Shown here piece by piece: positions 9,016-61,653 of a stretch of DNA of 64,000 nucleotides (positions are counted from its first letter, which is position 1; every line of letters begins with the position of its first letter). Below the pieces are notes generated by a model that had not been told where the DNA came from, ran no database searches, and saw only the letters and a list, made by a program, of their open reading frames with translations. This stretch comes from Paludibacter sp. (GTDB lineage Bacteria; Bacteroidota; Bacteroidia; Bacteroidales; Paludibacteraceae), in NCBI GenBank assembly GCA_034927635.1, contig JAYFPP010000215.1:6868-70867 (forward strand), written 5' to 3'. Position numbers and translations under genes: made by a program.

Positions 9016-10820
9016 TGGTGATACGATTGAATCTGCGATTTCTCACATTATTATCTGTCCTTTTCAGTATTTTCTTTGCTGTGGGATGTAAAGACACAGA
9101 AGTGACCGAAGGCATACAGGGGGTTTCGGTAAGCGAAAAAACGCTTACCATGGGTATTGGGAAAACCCGTCAGGTATATGCTTCGGTATATCCCTGCTTG
9201 CCCGGAGGCGATCAAATAAGATGGTCGGTGGAAAATCCGGATATAGCTACTGTTGAGGACAAGGGAACGCATAACGGTATAAGTATGGCGACGATTACGG
9301 CCGTAGCAAAAGGTAAGGTTGTGGTGATAGCCGAATCAGTCACCGACAGCACCAGAAAGGCAGTTATAACCGTCGATGTGGTTGAATTCACTTTTGAGGA
9401 TCAGGCAAAAGGAATGGATTATAAGTCGGATGAATTAATTACCTATAGTGTGCCTGACGGATACCCTCAGGAAGGCACTCAGCTGTTTAATGTTGCTGTT
9501 AATGACAAATTTACCGGTGTGTATACCGATATAAATGCATGGCAGAAACTTGTAAGTTTTGCTTACTTTGATTTTACTCCCGGCAATGAGGTAGAGGTGG
9601 AAGTTACTACTACAAAATCATTCGGAAGTTATAAAATATTACCGGAGTCGGAAAATATAATTTCTACCAGAGAAGGAAACGCCATCCGTTTTAAAGTAAA
9701 AGAAGCCTACCAGAATCTCTCGATTGTGTTTGATGATAATTATAAAGCGAATACACTTCATCTTTTTGCCAATGCCATCGACACTGATGCTCCCACTGAA
9801 TCGAACGATAACCTGATTTATTTCGGTCCGGGATACCATGATTTGTCGAAAAATTACGGAGGAAGAATTACTACAGGAAACAAGGATGTGTACATCGCCG
9901 GCGGTGCTGTGGTGAGTGGAGCGATGGTTGTAAGTGGCAACGGAAATCACGTGAGCGGCCATGGTATAATGATGAAAACCACTCCGAATGATCTGGTACT
10001 CATAGCCAATTATGCCAGAAATGCATTGATTGAAGGTATTATTGTTTGTAGTCACCGGAACGGAGGATGGACAGTGGGCATGCATGAAGCGTCGAATATC
10101 ACGGTGCAAAATGTGAAGGTTGTGAGTACCCGTTATGCAAGTACCGATGGCTTCGATATTGTTAATACCAACAATGTTACAATGAGAAATACCTTTATAC
10201 GCTCATGCGACGATGCAATTGCAATTAAAGGACTGATCAATAATACTCCGTCGTTGTGTCTGCCAAACGAAAAGATGTCCTTTGAAAAACTCCAGATATG
10301 GAACGACTGTAACAACGCGATGTGTCTGGGTGCCGAAACCCGTGCCAGACATTATGAAGACATTCATTTTAAAGATATTGATGTACTGTTCTCTTACGAC
10401 GACCGTGATCATCACACAGAGTTAGATGAGCGATCGGTAATGAGTATTGTGTGTCTTGAAGGTACCTATTTCAGGAATATCAGTTGGGAAGATATTCGTG
10501 TCAACAGGTGCGAACGGTTGATTTGTCAGACATTTAAAAACAGCTTCTGGTTTGGCTCCATTATGGGTGACCAGACTACCGAAGGTGGTGTTGAAGGAGT
10601 AACATACAAGAATATAACAGTAGCTTCGAATAGCGGGAGTAAAATTGCCAATGAGATACTGCTCAACGGATGGCTCAAAGATGGTACCCCGACTAAAATA
10701 ATCAATAATGTTGTTTTCGACAATGTAATTATTCAGGGGAAACGCGTGAACAGTGAGAGTAATATTAAGACAAACAATACCCCGGAACAGCAATTAATCA
10801 CAAATTTAATTTTTAAATAG
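9012..10820 (+). CDS. Lipoprotein: Ig-like (Big_2) domain plus GH28/GH49-like beta-helix glycoside hydrolase
   Basis: Lipobox AVGC; WSVENPDIATV Ig repeat; STDGFD and CDDAIAIK give Asp residues at 0/+21/+22 as in GH28. Confidence 0.8.
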   Translation: MMVIRLNLRFLTLLSVLFSIFFAVGCKDTEVTEGIQGVSVSEKTLTMGIGKTRQVYASVYPCLPGGDQIRWSVENPDIATVEDKGTHNGISMATITAVAKGKVVVIAESVTDSTRKAVITVDVVEFTFEDQAKGMDYKSDELITYSVPDGYPQEGTQLFNVAVNDKFTGVYTDINAWQKLVSFAYFDFTPGNEVEVEVTTTKSFGSYKILPESENIISTREGNAIRFKVKEAYQNLSIVFDDNYKANTLHLFANAIDTDAPTESNDNLIYFGPGYHDLSKNYGGRITTGNKDVYIAGGAVVSGAMVVSGNGNHVSGHGIMMKTTPNDLVLIANYARNALIEGIIVCSHRNGGWTVGMHEASNITVQNVKVVSTRYASTDGFDIVNTNNVTMRNTFIRSCDDAIAIKGLINNTPSLCLPNEKMSFEKLQIWNDCNNAMCLGAETRARHYEDIHFKDIDVLFSYDDRDHHTELDERSVMSIVCLEGTYFRNISWEDIRVNRCERLICQTFKNSFWFGSIMGDQTTEGGVEGVTYKNITVASNSGSKIANEILLNGWLKDGTPTKIINNVVFDNVIIQGKRVNSESNIKTNNTPEQQLITNLIFK

Positions 10821-48272: not shown

Positions 48273-48345
<73 letters not shown>

Positions 48346-48365
48346 CTCTCTCAGGAGTCATTCCT

Positions 48366-48448
48366 GCCCGGATGGTGGAATGGTAGACACGAAGGACTTA
48401 AAATCCTTTGGCCTCACGGCTGTGCGGGTTCAAGTCCCGCTTCGGGTA
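48366..48448 (+). tRNA. tRNA-Leu (TAA)
   Basis: Acceptor GCCCGGA/TTCGGGT, anticodon arm AAGGA-CTTAAAA-TCCTT, long variable arm, GGTTCAAGTCC, discriminator A. Confidence 0.97.
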
Positions 48449-50033
48449 CAAAAAGGGACAATTGATCATTTTGATTAATTGTCTCTTTTTCTTTTTGATC
48501 ATATTCATTTGGCTTACAGCACCTTAACGATACAAATTGATTAATCGACAGAGGTTCAATGTTGCCAACTTCTTTATTAAAAACAAAACCCATGGGATGA
48601 ATAACCTTCTGTATTCTCTTCTTCTCCCCAAGATCCGCTAACTCCCATATTTTGAGCATATTATTCCTGTATTTCAATCCATAATCTATGTATTTGGGTA
48701 GGTTCAATGACATATCATTAACCTTTTGCAATTCAGTCTCAATTATTTCTTTTTCATTTTCCAAATCAGCCAATTTCCTTGTGCAAGCTTCAACTTGTCT
48801 TTGATTGTTTGCAAAAGCCAAGTTGTCCTCAACTTGTTTAATATAACCTTCAACACTCGATAATTTACGCTTCAATAATGTCAGTTGCTCTGAGTCATTC
48901 TTTGTCATATAGGAAAAAGTTTTCTTCATTTGAATTTTCAATAGTTCTGTCAACTCACTTGACAATCCATAACTATTCAATATATCTTTATAAGATTGAT
49001 GAATATTCTTTGCAGCATTGTTTTGCTTACAACCTTTATTCCAACAAACATAATAATAAATCTCTTTATCGTATTTCTTTTTCATTTTAGTAGATATGGA
49101 GGCAGTCATATTTCGTCTACAGATTGGACATTTAATAGACCCAAGTAATGGTACCTCTGGTTTATACATTTTTACTTCATAGCCATTTGAATGACTAATA
49201 TCCAACAGTCCATTTGCTTTCAAAAAAATATCTTCACTTACAATTGCAGGATGATTTCCTTTAATTATCTCTCCTTTTAAAAAGTTATGACTCATGTATC
49301 CTGCATAGAATGGATTTTTGAAGAGTTCTGATAGCTTCTGCTTGTTTATGATGAAACCTAATTTTTCAAGTTTAATTCTGATTTCTTCATTACTAAGGTT
49401 CTGATTTACTTTCCAGTCGAAAGCCAGTTTAATCTTCTCCCCCTCTTCATTAATTGTAATTACTTGTTCCTTCTTCGTAGTTTTTTGATCATAACCCCTT
49501 GGTGCTTTGGCAATCCATCGTCCTTTTCTCAGTGCAGCAATGCTGTTGTCGATTGTAGTGTTTCTTTTAATATCATTATCTAATCTCGCAGTAGCAAGCT
49601 CCATATTCTGAATAAACTTTCCTTGTGCAGTTTTTGGGTCATAATTAGAGGTTGCAGATCGAACTTGTGCTCCTCTTTTTTCAACTTCTTCAATAATTGT
49701 TGTACTACCTGTACGGCTAAAACGGCTTGTCGAGTATACAATTACTGCTTTAATTGGTATTCTTGAATTATTGAGATAAGCAATCATTTTTGAAAACTCC
49801 TTTCTCTCTTTATCCGATTTGGCACTCTCAAATGTTCCTCCGAACCGTTCCAAAACTGTCATTCCAAGTTTTTCAGCATATTGTTCGCATTTTTCCATTT
49901 GCGTATTCAGGCTTTGACCATCCAACTGTTCCTTTGAGCTTACTCTATTATATATTATACAATATCCCCCAGCTTCCTCTTGTTCTTGAAACTTTCCCTT
50001 TGCAAATTTCTTTAGTTTATCATTCATAGTCAT
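48414..50033 (-). CDS. Large serine recombinase (integrase)
   Basis: [11 protein letters not shown] (catalytic Ser), ESAK, SRFSR, recombinase domain PRGY, Zn ribbon CPIC...YYVC...C, coiled coil. Confidence 0.93.
48451..48489 (+). terminator. Terminator for the tRNA transcript, lying inside the recombinase CDS
   Basis: AAAAGGGACAATTGATCA-TTT-TGATTAATTGTCTCTTTT; its two G-T wobbles pair only in plus-strand RNA. Confidence 0.75.
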
Positions 50034-51067: not shown

Positions 51068-52993
51068 TTACGATTGATAATTGACAACGCGATAATCTAA
51101 TCCAAGTCTTTTACATTTTCCGATTAACTGTCTAGACCCTTTACTTTCCCCATCCCAAAAGATAATAGCAGCGTTTGCATATTCTGCCATTTGGGTATTT
51201 CTAACGTGTCCCGCACCTCTACCCAATGACCAATCAGGTTTCATTATCTTAAGTAAATATCCTCTTTCATTAGCATAGCGTTCACCTTAAGTATCTGCTC
51301 CATTCGCACCTCCTGATACGATTTCAATATTAGTTTCACCTGTAAGAAAGTTATCACATTCATTACATAATAATTCGTAATCATCAAATTCACGACCACC
51401 TGCAATAATTACTTTCGTAGTAGTTTGATTGTGGAATCTATATTTGACCTGATTGTTCTCAACATAAATTTCTATTTTTTCCCCGAACCAAAATATATTT
51501 GAATGATTCAATAATTCAAAATTAATAGGTGGAATTGTATTTTGCAATAAAGCAAGTTGACACAGTTTTAAACACTTACCTGTCAAGTTCCGACCTTCCC
51601 ATGTACCAATATTATTTATCCGATTATGAAGTAATTGCTCTCCCTTCTCAAAAGTTGCATTTACATTTACCCCCTCCTGCAACAATCTTTTGATTAATTG
51701 CTTGTTTTTTGCAACTCTCAAACTCTTCAAAGTGCTATTTTTAGCTCCCCAAACCTGAGTAGTTCCACCAACTGGCATAAAACTGGTGTCTTCTATTATA
51801 TGAGCATCAATTGGTACCTGCTCAAGCATTTTTCTAAAATCATCATTACTATTTACCTTTTCCCACAATACCATAAGCATCCAATTGACATTGAATGTTT
51901 CCCAATCTTGACGAATATGATTGAAGGGTTCAATTGTTCTATTATTACCTCTGTATGTCTTCTTAAGTATATATCCTCCACCTTTAAAATTGGAGATTTC
52001 ATTCATAATCTCTACTGAACGAATATCTGGATTTGAATAACAACCTACCACATAAGCACTCTCGCTATCATTGAACTGTTTGTCAAATAAAATCATCGGA
52101 CATTTCACCATGTTACCAAAGTTTAGGAATTTTCCATTTCGGGTATCACCGTTATTCCGAAAAGACCAACAATTCTCTTTGCTTCCATCCAAAGAAGTCC
52201 ATTCATTGAGATTCAGATAATCCAGATTAAAATTGTTACCATTTTCAATAAAAGATTGTGATACATGATCTTTCTCTTCTATGTCAACAAGAACTTCATT
52301 GATAACATTATTCAGATGAGTATCATTGATTTTCCTTCTTTCAAAATTATCAATATAATGATATAGGTTCTGAATATCTATAATTGAATTTATTGTAAAT
52401 GTCTCACCATCTATTGACACGAGACCTCTGAATACAACTTCATGGTTCTGTTCAAAGAAAGCTCTTATATCAACATTCAGTATGTTTGCTAATAATTCAA
52501 GTTTCTCCAAACCAGGGTGATTATCCAATGAATTATCCAAATTTTGTTTGGTTGTATTGACAACCTTCAGTACATCCTTTATTCCAAGTCCTTTACTTGA
52601 AAGAATTTCATAAAACCGAACTTTTATTGAAGTTAGTGGTTGATTATTCGCAACTTCAGGTTGTGCAACTAATTTTTCAAGAAATAATTTCAGCTTATCT
52701 AAGTCAAAGAATGAACTTGTTTTTTGTTTTTTATGGATTTCTATTGTGATATATCCATATATTTCATTCTTTCTTTTGAAAAGTTCTCCAGGTTCGACAT
52801 TCAGACATTTAGCAATTCGATTAAGTGTTCTTAATGTTGGGTTGGCATTCAAACTATTATATAAATTCCCTTGTGTCAAGTAATTTTTTTTACCCATTTT
52901 CTTCCCTTCTTTAAGGTTGATTTTTCTAGCTAAATCAGTTAAAGTCATTTCTTTAACTTTAAGGAGTTCTTCTATTCTTAGATTTTTATTCAT
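51068..52993 (-). pseudogene. HTH-HTH-NADAR-SLOG(YspA/DUF2493-like) fusion interrupted by an in-frame TAA at 51287-51289
   Basis: Two XRE HTHs (NPTLRTLNRIAKCLNV, HPGLEKLELLANILNV); NADAR motifs (FGNM, SESAY, DWE, IIED...VWG, GRNLTGKCL); then KVIIAGGREF...IVSGGANGADT*GERYA...RNTQMAEYA...FWDGESKG, 72 further codons ending at TAA 51068. The 568-aa truncated product may still be made. Confidence 0.8.
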
Positions 52994-53112
52994 AAAATTA
53001 AATTTTGCTGTAAATATACCATTAATTAATCATATATAATTATTATATATCATTTGGAAATTTAAAACAACATCAAATCACTTATAGTCTAAATGCACTA
53101 AGGGTTCATTTA

Positions 53113-53591: not shown

Positions 53592-53942
53592 TTATTTTTT
53601 AATTGTTTTTATTGAATTGTTTATTTCGATTGTAATTGAATATCTTTTCATATAACGATCAAAGTACTGAGGAGCATTAATAGTAATATCATAATTACCT
53701 TCAATAATTCTAATCCAGCTTGCCCAATTATATTCGTCCCCACCAAAGTTTGTTTGTGTTGCATGATTTCTTGCAATAGAATAGAATTCATGTATTTGGT
53801 CCCTGTTAAGACTTTCGATATAATACACAACCGTATCACCATATACTGCTGCGTGATTTGCAATATACCGTCCAAATAATTTGATGTTCGGTCTTTCACC
53901 AACTCCATTTTCACTGTCTGTTTCTTTAATAATTTGTTTCAT
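53592..53942 (-). CDS. Hypothetical protein
   Basis: 116-aa ORF co-oriented with neighbours, A-rich leader. Confidence 0.65.
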   Translation of the reverse strand: MKQIIKETDSENGVGERPNIKLFGRYIANHAAVYGDTVVYYIESLNRDQIHEFYSIARNHATQTNFGGDEYNWASWIRIIEGNYDITINAPQYFDRYMKRYSITIEINNSIKTIKK

Positions 53943-54081
53943 AAATTCTTGCTTTTAAATTGTTTGTAATAATAAGGAAGTAAGATTTCCCTACTCCCTG
54001 TTGTCTGCAAGGGAGTTCAATGATATCACAATTTATTGATACCCCGAGTGAGACGTTTAATGTATTAAGTCGGTAGTTCTG

Positions 54082-54915
54082 TCAAATCAAGCTCTTGTAT
54101 TCATTAAACCCATAAATCCAGAATTTATCAACTTCTTCCTTCATTTCTTGATAGTTACCCAATTCTATAATCTTATAAAATTTCTTTCGCTCATCCCAAT
54201 TAATGACATTATCTGGATTTAATCCGAAATCATTCAGGTTTTCATCAGGGTCAATCCCAACTGCAAAGAATAATTCTCCGTCAATCTCCCCAATATCAGG
54301 AAAATTGTAATCAATAAATTCAGACATTCCATTTCCAAGATATTTCATATTTACCCCCGAAATACCATTATCAACCAATACATAATTTTGGTTATATCTT
54401 AATATCGTATACGAATGAAAAGGTGGTCTTGTATCTATCATGAAATCCAACCTTATAAATAAATTGGGATGATCTATTGATAGAAATTCTACAAAATCAG
54501 AAATTCCTTCAGAAATTCGGAACTCACAATGATACAATGTATCTTTGATTATACGATTTTTCGAATCTTCGATTTCAAATCCTGATCCCCAATTTAGAAC
54601 GCACCAATCGTAGATTTGATATTCCCCAAACTCATCTTTCAATTCTTTACGTAATTGATTGTATTCTTGTTCGTTTTGACCGTTTTTATCTACGATTTCA
54701 ATAGATTCTTTACCGTTGCTACACCTTCTAAAAACCTTTTTGACTGGTTCAAATGACGAATCAAGATCATATTTCTTTATTTCTTCAGGAATCGGATAAA
54801 ACTTTTCCAACCTGAAATCCGAATCACCTTCTGAATTTAAGATTGAATAGAATTTATCCATATCCTCCTTACTCCCTTTAATTGTAATTAAATGATAATA
54901 TGTATTTCCTGACAT
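54082..54915 (-). CDS. YubB/DUF1281-like ferredoxin-fold protein
   Basis: N-terminal ITIKGS, FRLEKFYPIPEE and YDWCVLNWGS resemble the DUF1281 F....P.P and YDW...NWGTKW motifs. Confidence 0.55.
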   Translation of the reverse strand: MSGNTYYHLITIKGSKEDMDKFYSILNSEGDSDFRLEKFYPIPEEIKKYDLDSSFEPVKKVFRRCSNGKESIEIVDKNGQNEQEYNQLRKELKDEFGEYQIYDWCVLNWGSGFEIEDSKNRIIKDTLYHCEFRISEGISDFVEFLSIDHPNLFIRLDFMIDTRPPFHSYTILRYNQNYVLVDNGISGVNMKYLGNGMSEFIDYNFPDIGEIDGELFFAVGIDPDENLNDFGLNPDNVINWDERKKFYKIIELGNYQEMKEEVDKFWIYGFNEYKSLI

Positions 54916-55106
54916 AATATTTCCTTTCTTTTTAAATTTATTATTGTTTTATTTCTTGTTGAAAAACCGTTTATCCACCTATTGCAAATCCAACATATCA
55001 TATGTATTTATGATAAATCCTATTCACCTCTATGGATAATCCTTATATTCTTCAAATTTATATTTTATAAGTGCTTATTTATTAATTTCAAATCTCAATT
55101 ATTAAT

Positions 55107-55317
55107 CAAATGAAATTATTATATTCCATAACTATCAGATAGAAATTTCAAACAAAAAAGGTGTATCCATTTTGGACACACCTTCAGAACCGTGTATATT
55201 ACACGACTTACAAGTCTATCCATTTTTGTCTGAATTTTTTTTACTATTCATTTTCACTTTAATTTCACTTGTTCATGACCTAGGATTTGAACAAGTAGAA
55301 TTTATTATTGACCAATT
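55107..55317 (-). ncRNA. Candidate structured RNA/regulatory element, copy 1
   Basis: ~210-nt direct repeat of 56151-56361 with several hairpins and a terminator. Confidence 0.55.
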
Positions 55318-55358
55318 CTATTAGTCATTGCTTATTCAATCTGTCGACTGAATATTTT

Positions 55359-55949
55359 TTAAAATATATCTGATAATCTACCTTCTTTTATCTGTTTAGC
55401 ACTTTTATCAGCAACATAATTGTGATATTCATTCATTTTTAGAATATCTTCTATTGTTAGATTGTCGTTTATTTTGGTCTTATCTACTAAATAATAAATA
55501 GAACCAAAAATTATTTTATCAGATATCAAAATGATATTTTGACCAAACATAGGATTGAATATTTTGACCTTTTCAAATCCAATAAAATATTTCCACATGT
55601 CAATTAACTCTTCATTCAATTTACCACAATGATAAAATAATGAATTACGAACTCTTTTTAAATCCTTTTTATTTTTAGGATATAAAGTTGAAACATTCTT
55701 ATAAAATGAAACCATAATGTTGTCATTTACAGCATTAAACATAATACTTTTTTCTAAGTTAAATTTAGCTACTTTTATTCCACCTAATTCTGTAAGAATA
55801 TCCTTTAGCGTTACGTTTAAACCGATGGTTTTCACTGTTTTTTCGTTTGAACTATCATCACAAAATTCAATTTTGCATGTTTCGATATTTCCGCTTGACA
55901 ATTTGTCATTTGTACCCATAGTACTACATAATAAGTTTAATTTTTTCAT
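55359..55949 (-). CDS. Hypothetical protein
   Basis: 196-aa ORF lying between the two repeat copies. Confidence 0.7.
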   Translation of the reverse strand: MKKLNLLCSTMGTNDKLSSGNIETCKIEFCDDSSNEKTVKTIGLNVTLKDILTELGGIKVAKFNLEKSIMFNAVNDNIMVSFYKNVSTLYPKNKKDLKRVRNSLFYHCGKLNEELIDMWKYFIGFEKVKIFNPMFGQNIILISDKIIFGSIYYLVDKTKINDNLTIEDILKMNEYHNYVADKSAKQIKEGRLSDIF

Positions 55950-56150
55950 TTACAAATTTTTTATATTGATTAAAAACGATTGTCTTTTATTTGAAGGTGC
56001 ACAACCATTTACACCTTATCATTTTAATTATTATATCATCATGACATGATATAGGTTATGGTACTTAAATCTATGTGAAATAATCTGATTCTTTATATTT
56101 GTTGTTTACCATAGGTCTTTTGTCTTAATGTTCTTATATTTATTACATAT

Positions 56151-56361
56151 CAAATGATATTATTATATATCATAGTCTTCAGGTAGAAATTTCAAATAAA
56201 AAAGGTGCGTCCACCATGGACACACCTTCAGAACCGTGTATATTACACGACTTACAAGTCTATCCATTTTCATTTAAAATTTCTTTTTTTACAGTTCATT
56301 TTCTTGCAATTTTACTTGTTCAAGACTCGGGATTTGTACAAGTAGAATTTATTGACCAATT
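56151..56361 (-). ncRNA. Candidate structured RNA/regulatory element, copy 2
   Basis: Offset 1044 from copy 1; 54-nt identical core (56217-56270 = 55173-55226). Confidence 0.55.
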
Positions 56362-56479
56362 TGCATGCTGGTCGTAGATTATTCTATCTATCGAAAGAAT
56401 AAATCCTTTTACTTGTTAATTATATTCGTTTATGATAAACAATACAGAATTATCATATACAATAATTGACTTACTATCT

Positions 56480-56926
56480 TCAATGTAGATTAAACCTTAA
56501 ATTTTGAATTGGGTCTTCATATACAATTGAATTGATAATGTCAGTTTTTGAAATAACTGAAAACAGATTATTTTCAGTATTAATCCACTTCTTTACCACT
56601 TTCATAGTTCTTTCAACTACATTTTCAAATTTCACTGACTTTACAGTATCTACCACTTCTTCAATGACTTCATTTATCTTTTTACTAAAAGTTGATTTTA
56701 CAGTATCCCTATACAATCTTTTCAGTTCAAAAGAAGAAATCTTTGCATACATTACATTACCTTGAAACATACATTTAATCAAAGAAAAGATTTCAGTATA
56801 ATTCTTTACATTAGTGATTTCACACACGATTTCACCAGAATAAGATATTGTTACTATCTTATCGAATTGTCTAATTTCACAATCAGTTATTTTATACGTG
56901 ATTTTTGAAGTAATTCTTTTTTTCAT
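56480..56926 (-). CDS. Hypothetical protein
   Basis: 148-aa ORF co-oriented with neighbours. Confidence 0.65.
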   Translation of the reverse strand: MKKRITSKITYKITDCEIRQFDKIVTISYSGEIVCEITNVKNYTEIFSLIKCMFQGNVMYAKISSFELKRLYRDTVKSTFSKKINEVIEEVVDTVKSVKFENVVERTMKVVKKWINTENNLFSVISKTDIINSIVYEDPIQNLRFNLH

Positions 56927-58635: not shown

Positions 58636-59247
58636 TTAAACACCTGAATATTTTTTTATCTTCGTCATTGTATTAATATGCACCCCAGCTAATTTAGCTG
58701 CTTCTGAATTTGACATCCCACGTTTAAGATATTCCATAGCTTTTTTGTTTTTGGGTTTGGAAAGAAATGTAATAACATCTTCTTTTGTACCTTGTTTTCG
58801 CCCCAAATAACTACCTCTTGCTTTCGCTATTTTAATACCTTCAAATTGACGTTCCAAAATCTGAGTGCGCTCCATTTCGCTGATGGTTGCAAGAATGGAA
58901 ATAATGAGTCTGGAAATAGGATTTTCTTTTCCATCATCGTTGATAGTGGTTAGTCCCTGATTGATAAAATAAACCGGTATCAAGTTTTGATTAAGATAAG
59001 ACAAGGTATTTAATATGTCCAACATATCTCGTCCCAATCTATCAATAGTAATAGCACTGATTTTACCAACAATCCCTTTTTCAATGTAGGTCATGATTTC
59101 TTTTCCACCTGTTCGTTCGAAAAAAGGGATTGCTCCGGAGCATTTATCTTCGACCACCAAATCATAATCTTTTTCAGTGATTCGCTGTCTATCTGTTTTT
59201 TGATCTAAAGTGGATACACGTGTATATAAAATACTGATTTTCTTCAT
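58636..59247 (-). CDS. Small serine recombinase (resolvase/invertase) with C-terminal HTH
   Basis: LYTRVSTLDQ...RQ, EDKCSG, TIDRLGR, EMER..ILERQ.EGI..AK.RG.YLGRK, HTH. Confidence 0.93.
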   Translation of the reverse strand: MKKISILYTRVSTLDQKTDRQRITEKDYDLVVEDKCSGAIPFFERTGGKEIMTYIEKGIVGKISAITIDRLGRDMLDILNTLSYLNQNLIPVYFINQGLTTINDDGKENPISRLIISILATISEMERTQILERQFEGIKIAKARGSYLGRKQGTKEDVITFLSKPKNKKAMEYLKRGMSNSEAAKLAGVHINTMTKIKKYSGV

Positions 59248-59994: not shown

Positions 59995-61653
59995 CTATTC
60001 CTCCTTCCAAAGATTAGATTTAATTTTTTCTTCTTCACAATAGTCAATCACCTCATTAACTGTAGGATTACTTTTCGTGATTATACGATTGACAATACAT
60101 TTGGTGGAAATGTTCTCTATTTGTCCACCCGTTAAAGAATAGCTTTCTGCAATCATGTTAACTTCTCTCTCTTCCAAAAAATCAATCTTATTTTTCAGAA
60201 TAGATTTTACCGCTTTTATATCGGGATGTCCAATATGGATTTTAATAGTAAATCTGCGCAAAAATGCATTATCCAAATGCTCAACCATATTTGTGATTGC
60301 TATGATAATACCTTCATTTTTTTCAATATGTTCGAGGAGTACATTGATTATTGTTTGTTCAGTCATATCAGTTCTCTCTTGAATATCTGGATTTCTTCTA
60401 CCCATGAGAGCATCACATTCGTTGATCAGTAGAATTGGACTCATTTCAGATTTGCTACACAATAACTTGTAATCGTCAAAGATCTTTTTGACGTTTTTTT
60501 CAGATTCCGAGTACCATCTTGACCTAACTTGTGATAAATCAATCTGATATATATTGCGTTTAGTTTGTTTAGATAGCACTTCCACTATTGATGTCTTACC
60601 AGTTCCACTAGGACCATATAGCATTATCGAAATTCCTTCTGCTTTATTCCCTCTTTTCTTCATTTCCATTTTATATTCAGCAAAATTATCCTTCTGCAAA
60701 AGGGTTTGAATAATATTTAGTTCCCTTCGAATGTTAGAATTGAAAAACAACTTTTTTTCGGGTATTGAATCATGCTTTATATAATTGTGTGATGTCTCAA
60801 TCTCTGATTGTTTCTCACACTCTGTATTTCTTGTTTTATCATCAAGAAATAGTTCTTTTGCTTTTTCAGTTAATGTTAAGATAGTTTCATTTGACAGTTC
60901 CACCAACCCTTCTATTTGAATTTGAGTTGTCTTTTCTTTTAGTCTTTTCGTAAGCGATAAAACCTTAGAAGGTCCCAGAATATCAAAACCTATCATATTC
61001 AAATTAAGACTCTTTTCATTTTCAGTATATTTGTAAATCATATAATACATTATCAATCTATCCTTTACATCCAGGTCCAAAGACTTCATCGTCTTGATTT
61101 GAGTCAGGTTTTCATTCCTACTTTCTTGTTCAATAACTGAGTTCAACACATCTTCTCGTGATAGATGATTCAATAATTTGCGATTATTGATTCTGTACAT
61201 ATGTCCACAAAATTGAATGAAACTATACCCGTTTCCATACAATTTTTCAAATTGAATCTCTTCATTTCGAAACAACATATCTAATAGTTTCTGATTAACA
61301 GAAAATGAACTATTAAATAAATTATCTGATTTATCTTCCTTAATTTGCTTAATAAATCCCCTGTTTATTAGAACTTCAAGGTCGTTTTTGATATCAAAAA
61401 ACGACTCTATTTCCAGTCGAAGAAAATCAATCATTCGTTGTGATTTTACACGTTCCAGATCTTCATCAGTTGTAAAATTAAAAATGATTGAGAGCAATGC
61501 AGTTTGAATCTTAGATAGATTAAATAGTTCACACAGATATTTGAAAGCATTTTCCACCTCTTCGTCTGAACTAAATTCCAATTTCGATTTTCGACACTTG
61601 AAGAAAATGGATTTAAGGTGCTCAATAGTTGTCTTATGATTTATTTTATCCAT
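59995..61653 (-). CDS. AAA+ family ATPase
   Basis: Walker A GPSGTGKT, SRWYSESEKN, Walker B variant LLINECD, AITN...LDNAFLRRF, TGGQIEN. Confidence 0.9.
   Translation of the reverse strand: MDKINHKTTIEHLKSIFFKCRKSKLEFSSDEEVENAFKYLCELFNLSKIQTALLSIIFNFTTDEDLERVKSQRMIDFLRLEIESFFDIKNDLEVLINRGFIKQIKEDKSDNLFNSSFSVNQKLLDMLFRNEEIQFEKLYGNGYSFIQFCGHMYRINNRKLLNHLSREDVLNSVIEQESRNENLTQIKTMKSLDLDVKDRLIMYYMIYKYTENEKSLNLNMIGFDILGPSKVLSLTKRLKEKTTQIQIEGLVELSNETILTLTEKAKELFLDDKTRNTECEKQSEIETSHNYIKHDSIPEKKLFFNSNIRRELNIIQTLLQKDNFAEYKMEMKKRGNKAEGISIMLYGPSGTGKTSIVEVLSKQTKRNIYQIDLSQVRSRWYSESEKNVKKIFDDYKLLCSKSEMSPILLINECDALMGRRNPDIQERTDMTEQTIINVLLEHIEKNEGIIIAITNMVEHLDNAFLRRFTIKIHIGHPDIKAVKSILKNKIDFLEEREVNMIAESYSLTGGQIENISTKCIVNRIITKSNPTVNEVIDYCEEEKIKSNLWKEE

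Follow-up and report, generated by a model that had tools for sequence, protein, structure and literature searches.

In T4-type phages, promoter-early stem-loops (PeSL elements) are reiterated terminator-promoter cassettes that lie between ORFans, mediate the shuffling of modules and give rise to mini-circles (PMC2839356, PMC4122927). rAID-1 systems combine a tyrosine recombinase with arrays in which short genes of low GC content alternate with intergenic sequences that carry conserved motifs, and their biogenesis has been called unknown (10.1101/471110; 10.1101/2025.05.03.651265). Here we analyzed a stretch of 64,000 nucleotides from Paludibacter sp. (Bacteroidales; assembly GCA_034927635.1, contig JAYFPP010000215.1, positions 6,868 to 70,867 of the forward strand), hereafter called the window, in which a multi-hairpin element occurs twice on the minus strand and brackets a single open reading frame (ORF). 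Our favored interpretation, which we hold to be likely, is that both copies are units of a reiterated inter-cassette module of 250–310 nt in a hypervariable, co-oriented ORFan array on a low-GC integrative island. The module would stop the upstream transcript, would probably act as an attenuator and would serve as a recombination joint.

Results

Two copies of an inter-cassette module bracket a small gene

The two direct copies were delimited with self-BLAST and alignments. Copy B (56088–56401, minus strand) lies downstream of the gene for F1, a protein of 148 amino acids (aa), and upstream of ORF 55359–55949 (196 aa, minus strand). Copy A (55047–55354, minus strand) begins 5 nt past the stop codon of this ORF and lies upstream of the gene for F2, a 277-aa protein. 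Self-BLAST aligned 56401–56088 with 55354–55047 at 76.8% identity over 319 nt, i.e., the repeat extends beyond the limits given in the original prediction, which had described a duplicated element with a 54-nt core flanking one gene. On the minus strand this 54-nt stretch was found exactly twice in the window, at 56217–56270 in copy B and, identical, at 55173–55226 in copy A; none was expected by chance (100 shuffles), and the 3.34-Mb assembly contained two copies in total, both the window's own. Direct reading, shuffles and self-BLAST hence confirmed the duplication. The motifs named in the prediction were all present in both copies, i.e., ACTTGT(T/A)CA...TGAACAAGT, which forms hairpin hp1 in the alignments (55267–55296 in copy A and 56314–56343 in copy B, minus strand), GACTTGTAAGTC (55205–55216 and 56249–56260) and CGTGTA-ATA-TACACG, and both terminators were picked up by a terminator scan. 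Compared with shuffled sequences, the folding energies of the two copies gave z = −4.8 and −5.6.

Distribution of the module

A covariance model, R1, was built on the 134-nt core. In the window, cmsearch with R1 scored 146.6 bits for the core of copy B (56170–56303, minus strand) and 131.6 bits for that of copy A (55126–55255, minus strand). The core of copy B contains an invariant AUG with an A-rich segment, a putative antiterminator box, hairpin hp3, the terminator and an GAAATTTC box. R1 found 23 copies (22 distinct) from 12 sources, namely related islands of two other Paludibacter genomes and of wastewater and digester metagenomes (samples of the latter kinds yielded L038 and L042), and every one of the 23 had gene orientation and was positioned between small co-oriented ORFs. 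In the homologous island of one relative, G029, about 1.3 kb lie between two copies, and a third genome of the genus had two diverged copies. Homologues of F1 gave access to further islands, of which L050 and L056 carried three copies each, with neighboring copies one gene apart, and L049 and L053 two copies each.

When about 400 genomes that represent other genera of the order Bacteroidales were searched with R1, no copy was found, and there was none beyond one genus among about 800 Bacteroidales genomes. Exact-pattern scans of genome contigs returned the G029 record only, those of metagenome contigs two short contigs (L029 and L030), and those of viral contigs none; phage and plasmid collections likewise held no match to the element. 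Short-read contigs frequently break off 77–283 nt after F1, inside the module (L040, L043, L048, L057 and L059–L061 among them), which is expected of a repeat. Such arrays are hence systematically fragmented in public short-read assemblies.

Rfam held nothing relevant at gathering and E-value thresholds; within the window two tRNAs alone passed. The best sub-threshold match over the element was RT-17, which reached 18.9 bits where 40.4 are required (E = 1.6). With no family match and no aptamer-like conserved core seen, the riboswitch that had been offered as one option found no support.

Predicted terminator and hairpin hp3 under structural selection

Each core contains a predicted intrinsic terminator. 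In copy B (56198–56228, minus strand, ΔG −19.5) it has a loop of 3 nt on a stem of 13 bp, followed by U6, with the sequence AAGGTGTGTCCA-TGG-TGGACGCACC-T6; in copy A (55154–55184, minus strand, ΔG −18.0) it reads AAGGTGTGTCCA-AAA-TGGATACACC-T6. As described before, the differences change the loop and shift a G-U pair, and the stem is kept. All 22 distinct copies carried the terminator hairpin (−13.7 to −20.4 kcal/mol) followed by T4–7. Hairpin hp3 precedes it. In copy B (56232–56253, minus strand) it reads AAGUCGUGUA-AUA-UACACGGUU, and its top, GUGUA/UACAC, is nearly invariant in the family; in copy A it is found at 55188–55209 (minus strand). Its 10-bp stem, assigned from pairing and co-variation, was present in 21 of the 22 distinct copies, and RNAalifold recovered it from a MAFFT alignment independent of the model.

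In the alignment of the 23 copies fitted to R1, 93.2% of the terminator stem cells were paired with both-side changes in 10/10 pairs, and for hp3 94.8% of cells were paired with both-side changes in 4/10 pairs, where pairs 58–82 and 61–79 co-varied; the copies are related, so these counts do not represent independent events. The observed co-variation of terminator and hp3 was reached by none of 500 shuffles. In hp3, 35 G-U cells stood against 5 A-C cells, and the terminator had 12 against 0 (47 against 5 for both helices); this excess indicates that structure was selected on the gene-sense, i.e., minus-strand, RNA. We conclude that each module ends in a strong predicted intrinsic terminator that is under structural selection. 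A minus-strand RNA under such selection had been proposed before, and this part of the proposal stands on the co-variation and the wobble pairs. The 54-nt identity is better explained by gene conversion (see below) than by structural selection. A GACTT/AAGTC hairpin from the same proposal was not conserved in relatives, and it uses bases that also belong to the box and to an extension of hp3.

A conserved box can pair with the terminator 5′ arm

In copy B the sequence UGGAUAGACUU (56256–56266, minus strand) is complementary to the terminator 5′ arm AGGUGUGUCCA, with a duplex ΔG of −13.6. The corresponding box of copy A (55212–55222, minus strand) was located from duplex energy and from the fold of the truncated RNA. 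Across the copies, the box:5′-arm duplex had energies between −8.4 and −16.7 kcal/mol, and a further helix that RNAalifold drew from the MAFFT alignment joins GUGUCC in the terminator 5′ arm to the conserved AUGGAUAU box. When the RNA was truncated after the 5′ arm, 22 of 22 copies folded into one long hairpin in which 8–11 bp between box and arm stacked on hp3, including copies with a changed 5′-arm sequence. The box tracks these changes: class 1 copies pair GGAUAU with GUGUCC, class 2 copies GGACAA with UUGUCC, and the third copy of L056 pairs ACUGACAC with GUGUUGGU. For the two main classes, shuffling of the box gave p of about 0.004. Since the long hairpin of box, hp3 and 5′ arm excludes the terminator, the stop is probably conditional, and the layout is probably that of a kinetic terminator/antiterminator attenuator. 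An attenuator had been among the options of the original prediction, and it has gained weight with a conserved box that can pair with the terminator 5′ arm in every copy.

We propose the following working of the module. On the gene-sense strand, its putative order from 5′ to 3′ would be hp0 and hp1 as optional hairpins of the 3′ untranslated region, the AUG with its A-rich stretch, the box, hp3, the terminator, a palindrome P, a leader hairpin and the next ORF. The module would terminate the transcript of the upstream cassette. In the emerging RNA, the box, hp3 and the 5′ arm would form the long hairpin and thereby block the terminator. Candidate switches are a protein that binds hp3 or translation of a mini-ORF that ends at the box. 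In copy B such a candidate mini-ORF (MNCKKRNFK*, 56270–56299, minus strand) starts at the family-invariant AUG, which occupies model positions 5–7 in 23/23 copies, and stops 3 nt before the box; the short versions of the family stop 0–3 nt before the box or within it.

Cassette exchange between module copies

The arrays are bounded by conserved anchors, F1 on one side and on the other side F3, a gene with a fusion of helix-turn-helix (HTH) and SLOG domains, together with F5, a T4 gp30.3-like gene; this side is also described as an HTH-NADAR gene pair. Between these anchors about 20 ORFan cassette families vary in order and copy number. The cargo between the two copies was the 196-aa ORF, family F13, in the window, L038 and L041, four ORFs of 204, 75, 105 and 76 aa in L042, and two ORFs of 109 and 86 aa in G029. 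Homology between the window and L042 breaks at 56131, the end of copy B, and at 55358, the start of copy A. The idea of a cassette boundary, also part of the original prediction, hence held up well, as the cargo differs among islands, the copies and their outer flanks are kept and the copies are mosaic.

Sister island L038 was 98.1% identical to the window over 3.47 kb, and 50 of the 68 differences fell within copy A (55165–55343). The 3′ part of the module groups by position, with 98.4% identity between copy A of the window and the second copy of L038. The core groups by genome, i.e., with the other local copy: the two copies of G029 are 93.3% identical in the core, whereas their 5′ parts share 32% and their 3′ parts 62.5%. 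In L030 the 196-aa gene is followed by a hybrid copy, with a 5′ part of A type and a terminator and 3′ part of B type, and then by a different cassette. The mosaic copies and the concentration of differences in copy A mark the module as a hotspot of recombination and gene conversion. At the position of the 54-nt identity the core of the positional orthologue in L038 has diverged; we therefore read the identity as a tract of recent conversion, with copy B as donor and copy A as recipient, and not as a result of purifying selection. Eleven of the 68 differences to L038 are packed into 64 nt of the F1 gene (56540–56603), which looks like a second short conversion tract.

Since the same module recurs between unrelated genes, it can serve as a homology patch for recombination, and comparison of the islands shows it as a patch where cassettes appear to have been inserted, replaced, duplicated and deleted. 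The module would thus double as terminator region and as site of cassette exchange via shared homology.

Optional and downstream parts of the module

The hp0/hp1 part was absent from about half of the copies. In the second copy of L038 and the first copy of G029, the arms of hp1 are swapped for compensating sequence.

Palindrome P follows the terminator, as ATGATAT-ATAATA-ATATCAT in copy B (56154–56173, minus strand) and as ATGGAAT-ATAATA-ATTTCAT in copy A (55110–55129, minus strand). Almost every copy retains it, with a loop of variable length and with changes that compensate one another. About 45 nt separate a leader hairpin (AAGGUG...CACCUU; 55994–56017, minus strand) from the downstream ATG of ORF 55359–55949, and P and leader hairpin together make up a unit of about 118 nt that recurs ahead of unrelated ORFs. 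The center of P is TATAAT-like, and a −35/N17/−10 arrangement is absent after the terminator. P is a candidate promoter/operator or a candidate 5′-leader hairpin. The sole perfect match to TAnnTTTG, the −7 box of Bacteroidota, occurs in alpha-type copies, some 145 nt ahead of the ATG of F2. At a distance of 36–61 nt, the HTH-SLOG gene is preceded by a P-like palindrome (AATGATATATAATAATTATATATGAT; 53029–53054, minus strand) that G029 has kept as well and that may act as a common operator or promoter of the array and its putative regulator.

A self-complementary octamer, GAAATTTC, flanks the hp3-terminator unit, with sites at 56272–56279 and 56186–56193 in copy B and at 55142–55149 in copy A. 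The upstream site is degenerate in copy B (GAAATTTT) and was lost through a 4-nt deletion in copy A. Over 18 positions, an A-rich stretch beside this upstream site is able to pair with the U-tract, and in the family as a whole 90% are paired. The two boxes may form a long-range helix, for which read-through RNA is needed, or may be two protein-binding sites; GAAATTTC is its own reverse complement.

Alternative explanations

A number of observations weigh against the module as conditional terminator and recombination joint. The terminator form was more stable than the alternative by 3–11 kcal/mol in most copies, so the switch may never operate. In the antiterminator helix 84.9% of cells were paired with both-side changes in two pairs, i.e., co-variation was modest, and in the diverged second copy of L053 and third copy of L050 the box paired with the strict 5′ arm alone no better than shuffled boxes. 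The length of the mini-ORF, 3–42 codons across the copies, is not conserved, and no constraint on its peptide was seen. The module contains no conserved match to TAnnTTTG; a 'restart' of transcription by the module after the stop, and a promoter or operator role of P, are thus conjectural. A strict empty site, i.e., the module of a related island with no intervening gene, was searched for and none was found; L049 and L056 have the order F1-module-F2, with a diverged F2.

The strong terminators in all copies, the thermodynamic preference for the terminator form in most of them and the weak co-variation of the antiterminator helix would also be seen if the element were a plain constitutive terminator and promoter region that was duplicated together with inserted genes, where box, mini-ORF and hp3 are non-regulatory and recombination is passive. 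Pairing of this kind is moreover not rare: among 223 other terminator-like hairpins of the genome, upstream sequence could pair over at least 8 bp in 21% and over at least 10 bp in 5.4%. However, the box has a constant position and tracks changed 5′ arms, and amid variable neighbors hardly any change is seen at the AUG or in the top of hp3. We consider a plain terminator unlikely, although it deserves to be taken seriously.

A trans-acting small RNA (sRNA), made as its own transcript or cut from the 3′ untranslated region and with targets elsewhere, would fit a structured core of about 110 nt that ends in a terminator, that shows selection on the sense strand and that, with no Rfam match, would be an undescribed RNA. 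A free-standing sRNA gene had indeed been suggested for this locus. In several copies, however, the core starts 10–60 nt past the upstream stop codon within unrelated sequence, too close for a conserved promoter to fit in between, and this speaks against such a gene. Furthermore, the element is confined to these arrays with multiple copies per array, and no conserved single-stranded seed region was seen. An sRNA is thus improbable in our view.

The direct repeats that bracket cargo and the several palindromes in the element could also point to a site for a dedicated site-specific recombinase, similar to res or attC, and a candidate enzyme, a small serine recombinase, the 203-aa resolvase (58636–59247), is encoded about 2.3 kb upstream. 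The palindromes, however, lack a common half-site, hp1 is missing in many copies, and its arms can be replaced by unrelated compensating sequence. The centers of hp1 differ (TA versus CG), and serine recombinases need identical crossover centers. Conversion tracts stop wherever shared homology stops, and no dedicated recombinase was consistently linked to the module, as related islands that bear these modules have no resolvase, or have another recombinase in its place. Such a site is hence very improbable.

The conserved sequence could encode a small protein, either from the sense mini-ORF, whose AUG is invariant, or from an antisense ORF of 50–53 aa that gene callers report and that is annotated in several public assemblies. 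A basic, Cys-containing frame of 35 codons (MNCKKRNFRRKWIYFKLCKIHDFERCV...) runs from the AUG through hp3 and terminator in most copies, class 1 copies among them, e.g., at 9896–10003 of L027; it is open in nine copies and shortened to 9–11 codons in the copies of the window. Against this, the sense ORF has only 3–13 codons in the window, G330 and other copies, every substitution among the long forms is non-synonymous, and the antisense ORF was rejected, since variants differ by a frame shift in its middle and do not share its start codon. We regard a coding function of the core as hardly credible. A further sense ORF from AAAATGG (MDRLV...) was rejected as it is broken in G029, as read from the alignment. 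Finally, a miniature inverted-repeat or other non-autonomous transposon was discarded, since just two copies exist in the genome, both in the array, and relatives have them at syntenic positions.

Gene content of the island

The GC content of the window drops from 40–45% to 25–31% at about 48.4 kb and beyond, with 25–31% throughout the island part at about 50–64 kb. The low-GC stretch starts at tRNA-Gly/tRNA-Leu (48273–48449) with a large serine recombinase at 48414–50033. It also encodes the T4 gp30.3-like gene, the HTH-SLOG fusion, the small resolvase, an IetA-like AAA ATPase and a run of small co-oriented genes without a family match. From this low-GC, tRNA and gene-content context we place the repeat element in a gene array on an integrative island, with tRNA-Leu beside its insertion point. 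The host encodes type IX secretion system proteins.

The F1 gene (56480–56926, minus strand), the conserved left anchor of the array, has 21 homologues, each of which heads a comparable array. Homologues of the bracketed F13 (55359–55949, minus strand) are confined to its own 90% cluster; no match was found in Pfam, PHROG or PADLOC, and the AlphaFold2 prediction was unusable (pLDDT 35.8). F2 (54082–54915, minus strand) is Api92/DUF1281-like, with PF18406 found in 4/7 family members and 2ijr as top PDB fold match (probability 0.97). Apart from this DUF1281_C domain in F2, Pfam gave no match for the array genes. Up to three members of the F2 family occur per array.

In the window the HTH-SLOG gene (51068–52993, minus strand) is split into parts of 568 and 58 aa; it is a single ORF of 638–649 aa in G029, L042, L050 and L053. 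A 552-aa AAA ATPase (59995–61653, minus strand) matched PADLOC IetA models (E = 3.7e-28), and no recognizable IetS protease partner adjoins it. A second inter-cassette element, E2 (53923–54056, minus strand), is unrelated to the main module. It comprises four hairpins and a terminator-like end, i.e., a GGGAGU..ACUUCC stem with UUAUU, and the next ATG follows about 35 nt on. Seven related islands carry E2, with one to three occurrences in each array and with substitutions in the stems that compensate each other, and no consistent antiterminator partner was found among the E2 elements checked.

Comparison with known systems

Fast-turnover arrays of small genes on mobile elements are a source of much unexplored biology of defense, counter-defense and immunity. 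The locus described here provides a concrete, sequence-defined joint for array building, which is an open question for the rAID systems of Bacteroidales, and a new structured RNA motif that is absent from Rfam and for which 23 aligned examples are now at hand. As a tentative extension, which we regard as possible and no more, the core could be an undescribed, reiterated attenuator RNA that is gated by the mini-ORF or by an RNA-binding protein of the island, e.g., F1, whose gene is always adjacent, so that one signal would open read-through across the array. The same sequence would be the recombination joint with which the array is built, and both functions together would make up an integron-like cassette system of Bacteroidales without an integron integrase. 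A real switch could place the expression of a whole cassette array under a single signal; without it, the locus is still a clear counterpart, on a bacterial island, of the PeSL mechanism of phages.

Attenuators such as the BglG/LicT RAT sites or, among those with a leader peptide, the Bacteroid-trp motif consist of three segments, of which 1:2 and 2:3 form mutually exclusive pairings and 2:3 is the intrinsic terminator. The module shares with them the three-segment layout, a conserved hairpin beside the candidate switch and a short ORF that ends at segment 1. In contrast to them, it is reiterated between unrelated genes and does not head one operon, the next start codon is about 95–255 nt away, and no sensor protein, ligand or regulatory codon run was identified.

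Integrons likewise have a structured element, attC, after each promoterless-looking ORF of a co-oriented array. As in attC, structure is kept over sequence in part of the module (hp1), and the module may affect how the cassette that follows is expressed. In contrast, no IntI integrase, attI or Pc promoter and no adjacent tyrosine integrase were found here, and there are no R/L core sites, as hp1 is optional and lacks GTTRRRY and RYYYAAC. Moreover, the conserved part of the module is a terminator with a U-tract, and its mosaic junctions follow homology and not a fixed crossover point.

The resemblance to rAID-1, judged by description, lies in the setting, i.e., mobile DNA of Bacteroidales with low-GC, co-oriented short genes (about 70–280 codons here) and intergenic sequences that are repetitive and conserved. 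However, no tyrosine recombinase of the XerD family heads the array of the window; Pfam gave serine recombinases only in the island, and a short Phage_integrase ORF, found several kb upstream in some relatives, is not the array head. Whereas rAID-1 cassettes belong to SUKH and other Imm families, no cassette here matches a known immunity family, and the module was found in one genus alone among the Bacteroidales genomes searched.

With PeSL elements the module has in common that it is a composite, reiterated intergenic cassette in which an efficient stem-loop terminator precedes the expression signals of the next gene, a predicted terminator and candidate signals in our case. Both lie between ORFans of a hyperplastic region, where indels and replacements among close relatives are bounded by the element, and for both, recombination between neighboring copies is the proposed mechanism. 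The module differs in that it resides on a chromosomal integrative island of Bacteroidales and not in a lytic T4-like phage, is several times longer with multiple hairpins, and has no recognizable sigma-70 promoter of the −35/N17/−10 type. It also has the conserved box that is able to form an antiterminator with the terminator 5′ arm. By analogy, the closest mechanism is that of the PeSL elements, and within Bacteroidales rAID-1 is the system that comes nearest. To an architecture of this PeSL- and rAID-1-like kind, the locus adds a conserved antiterminator design.

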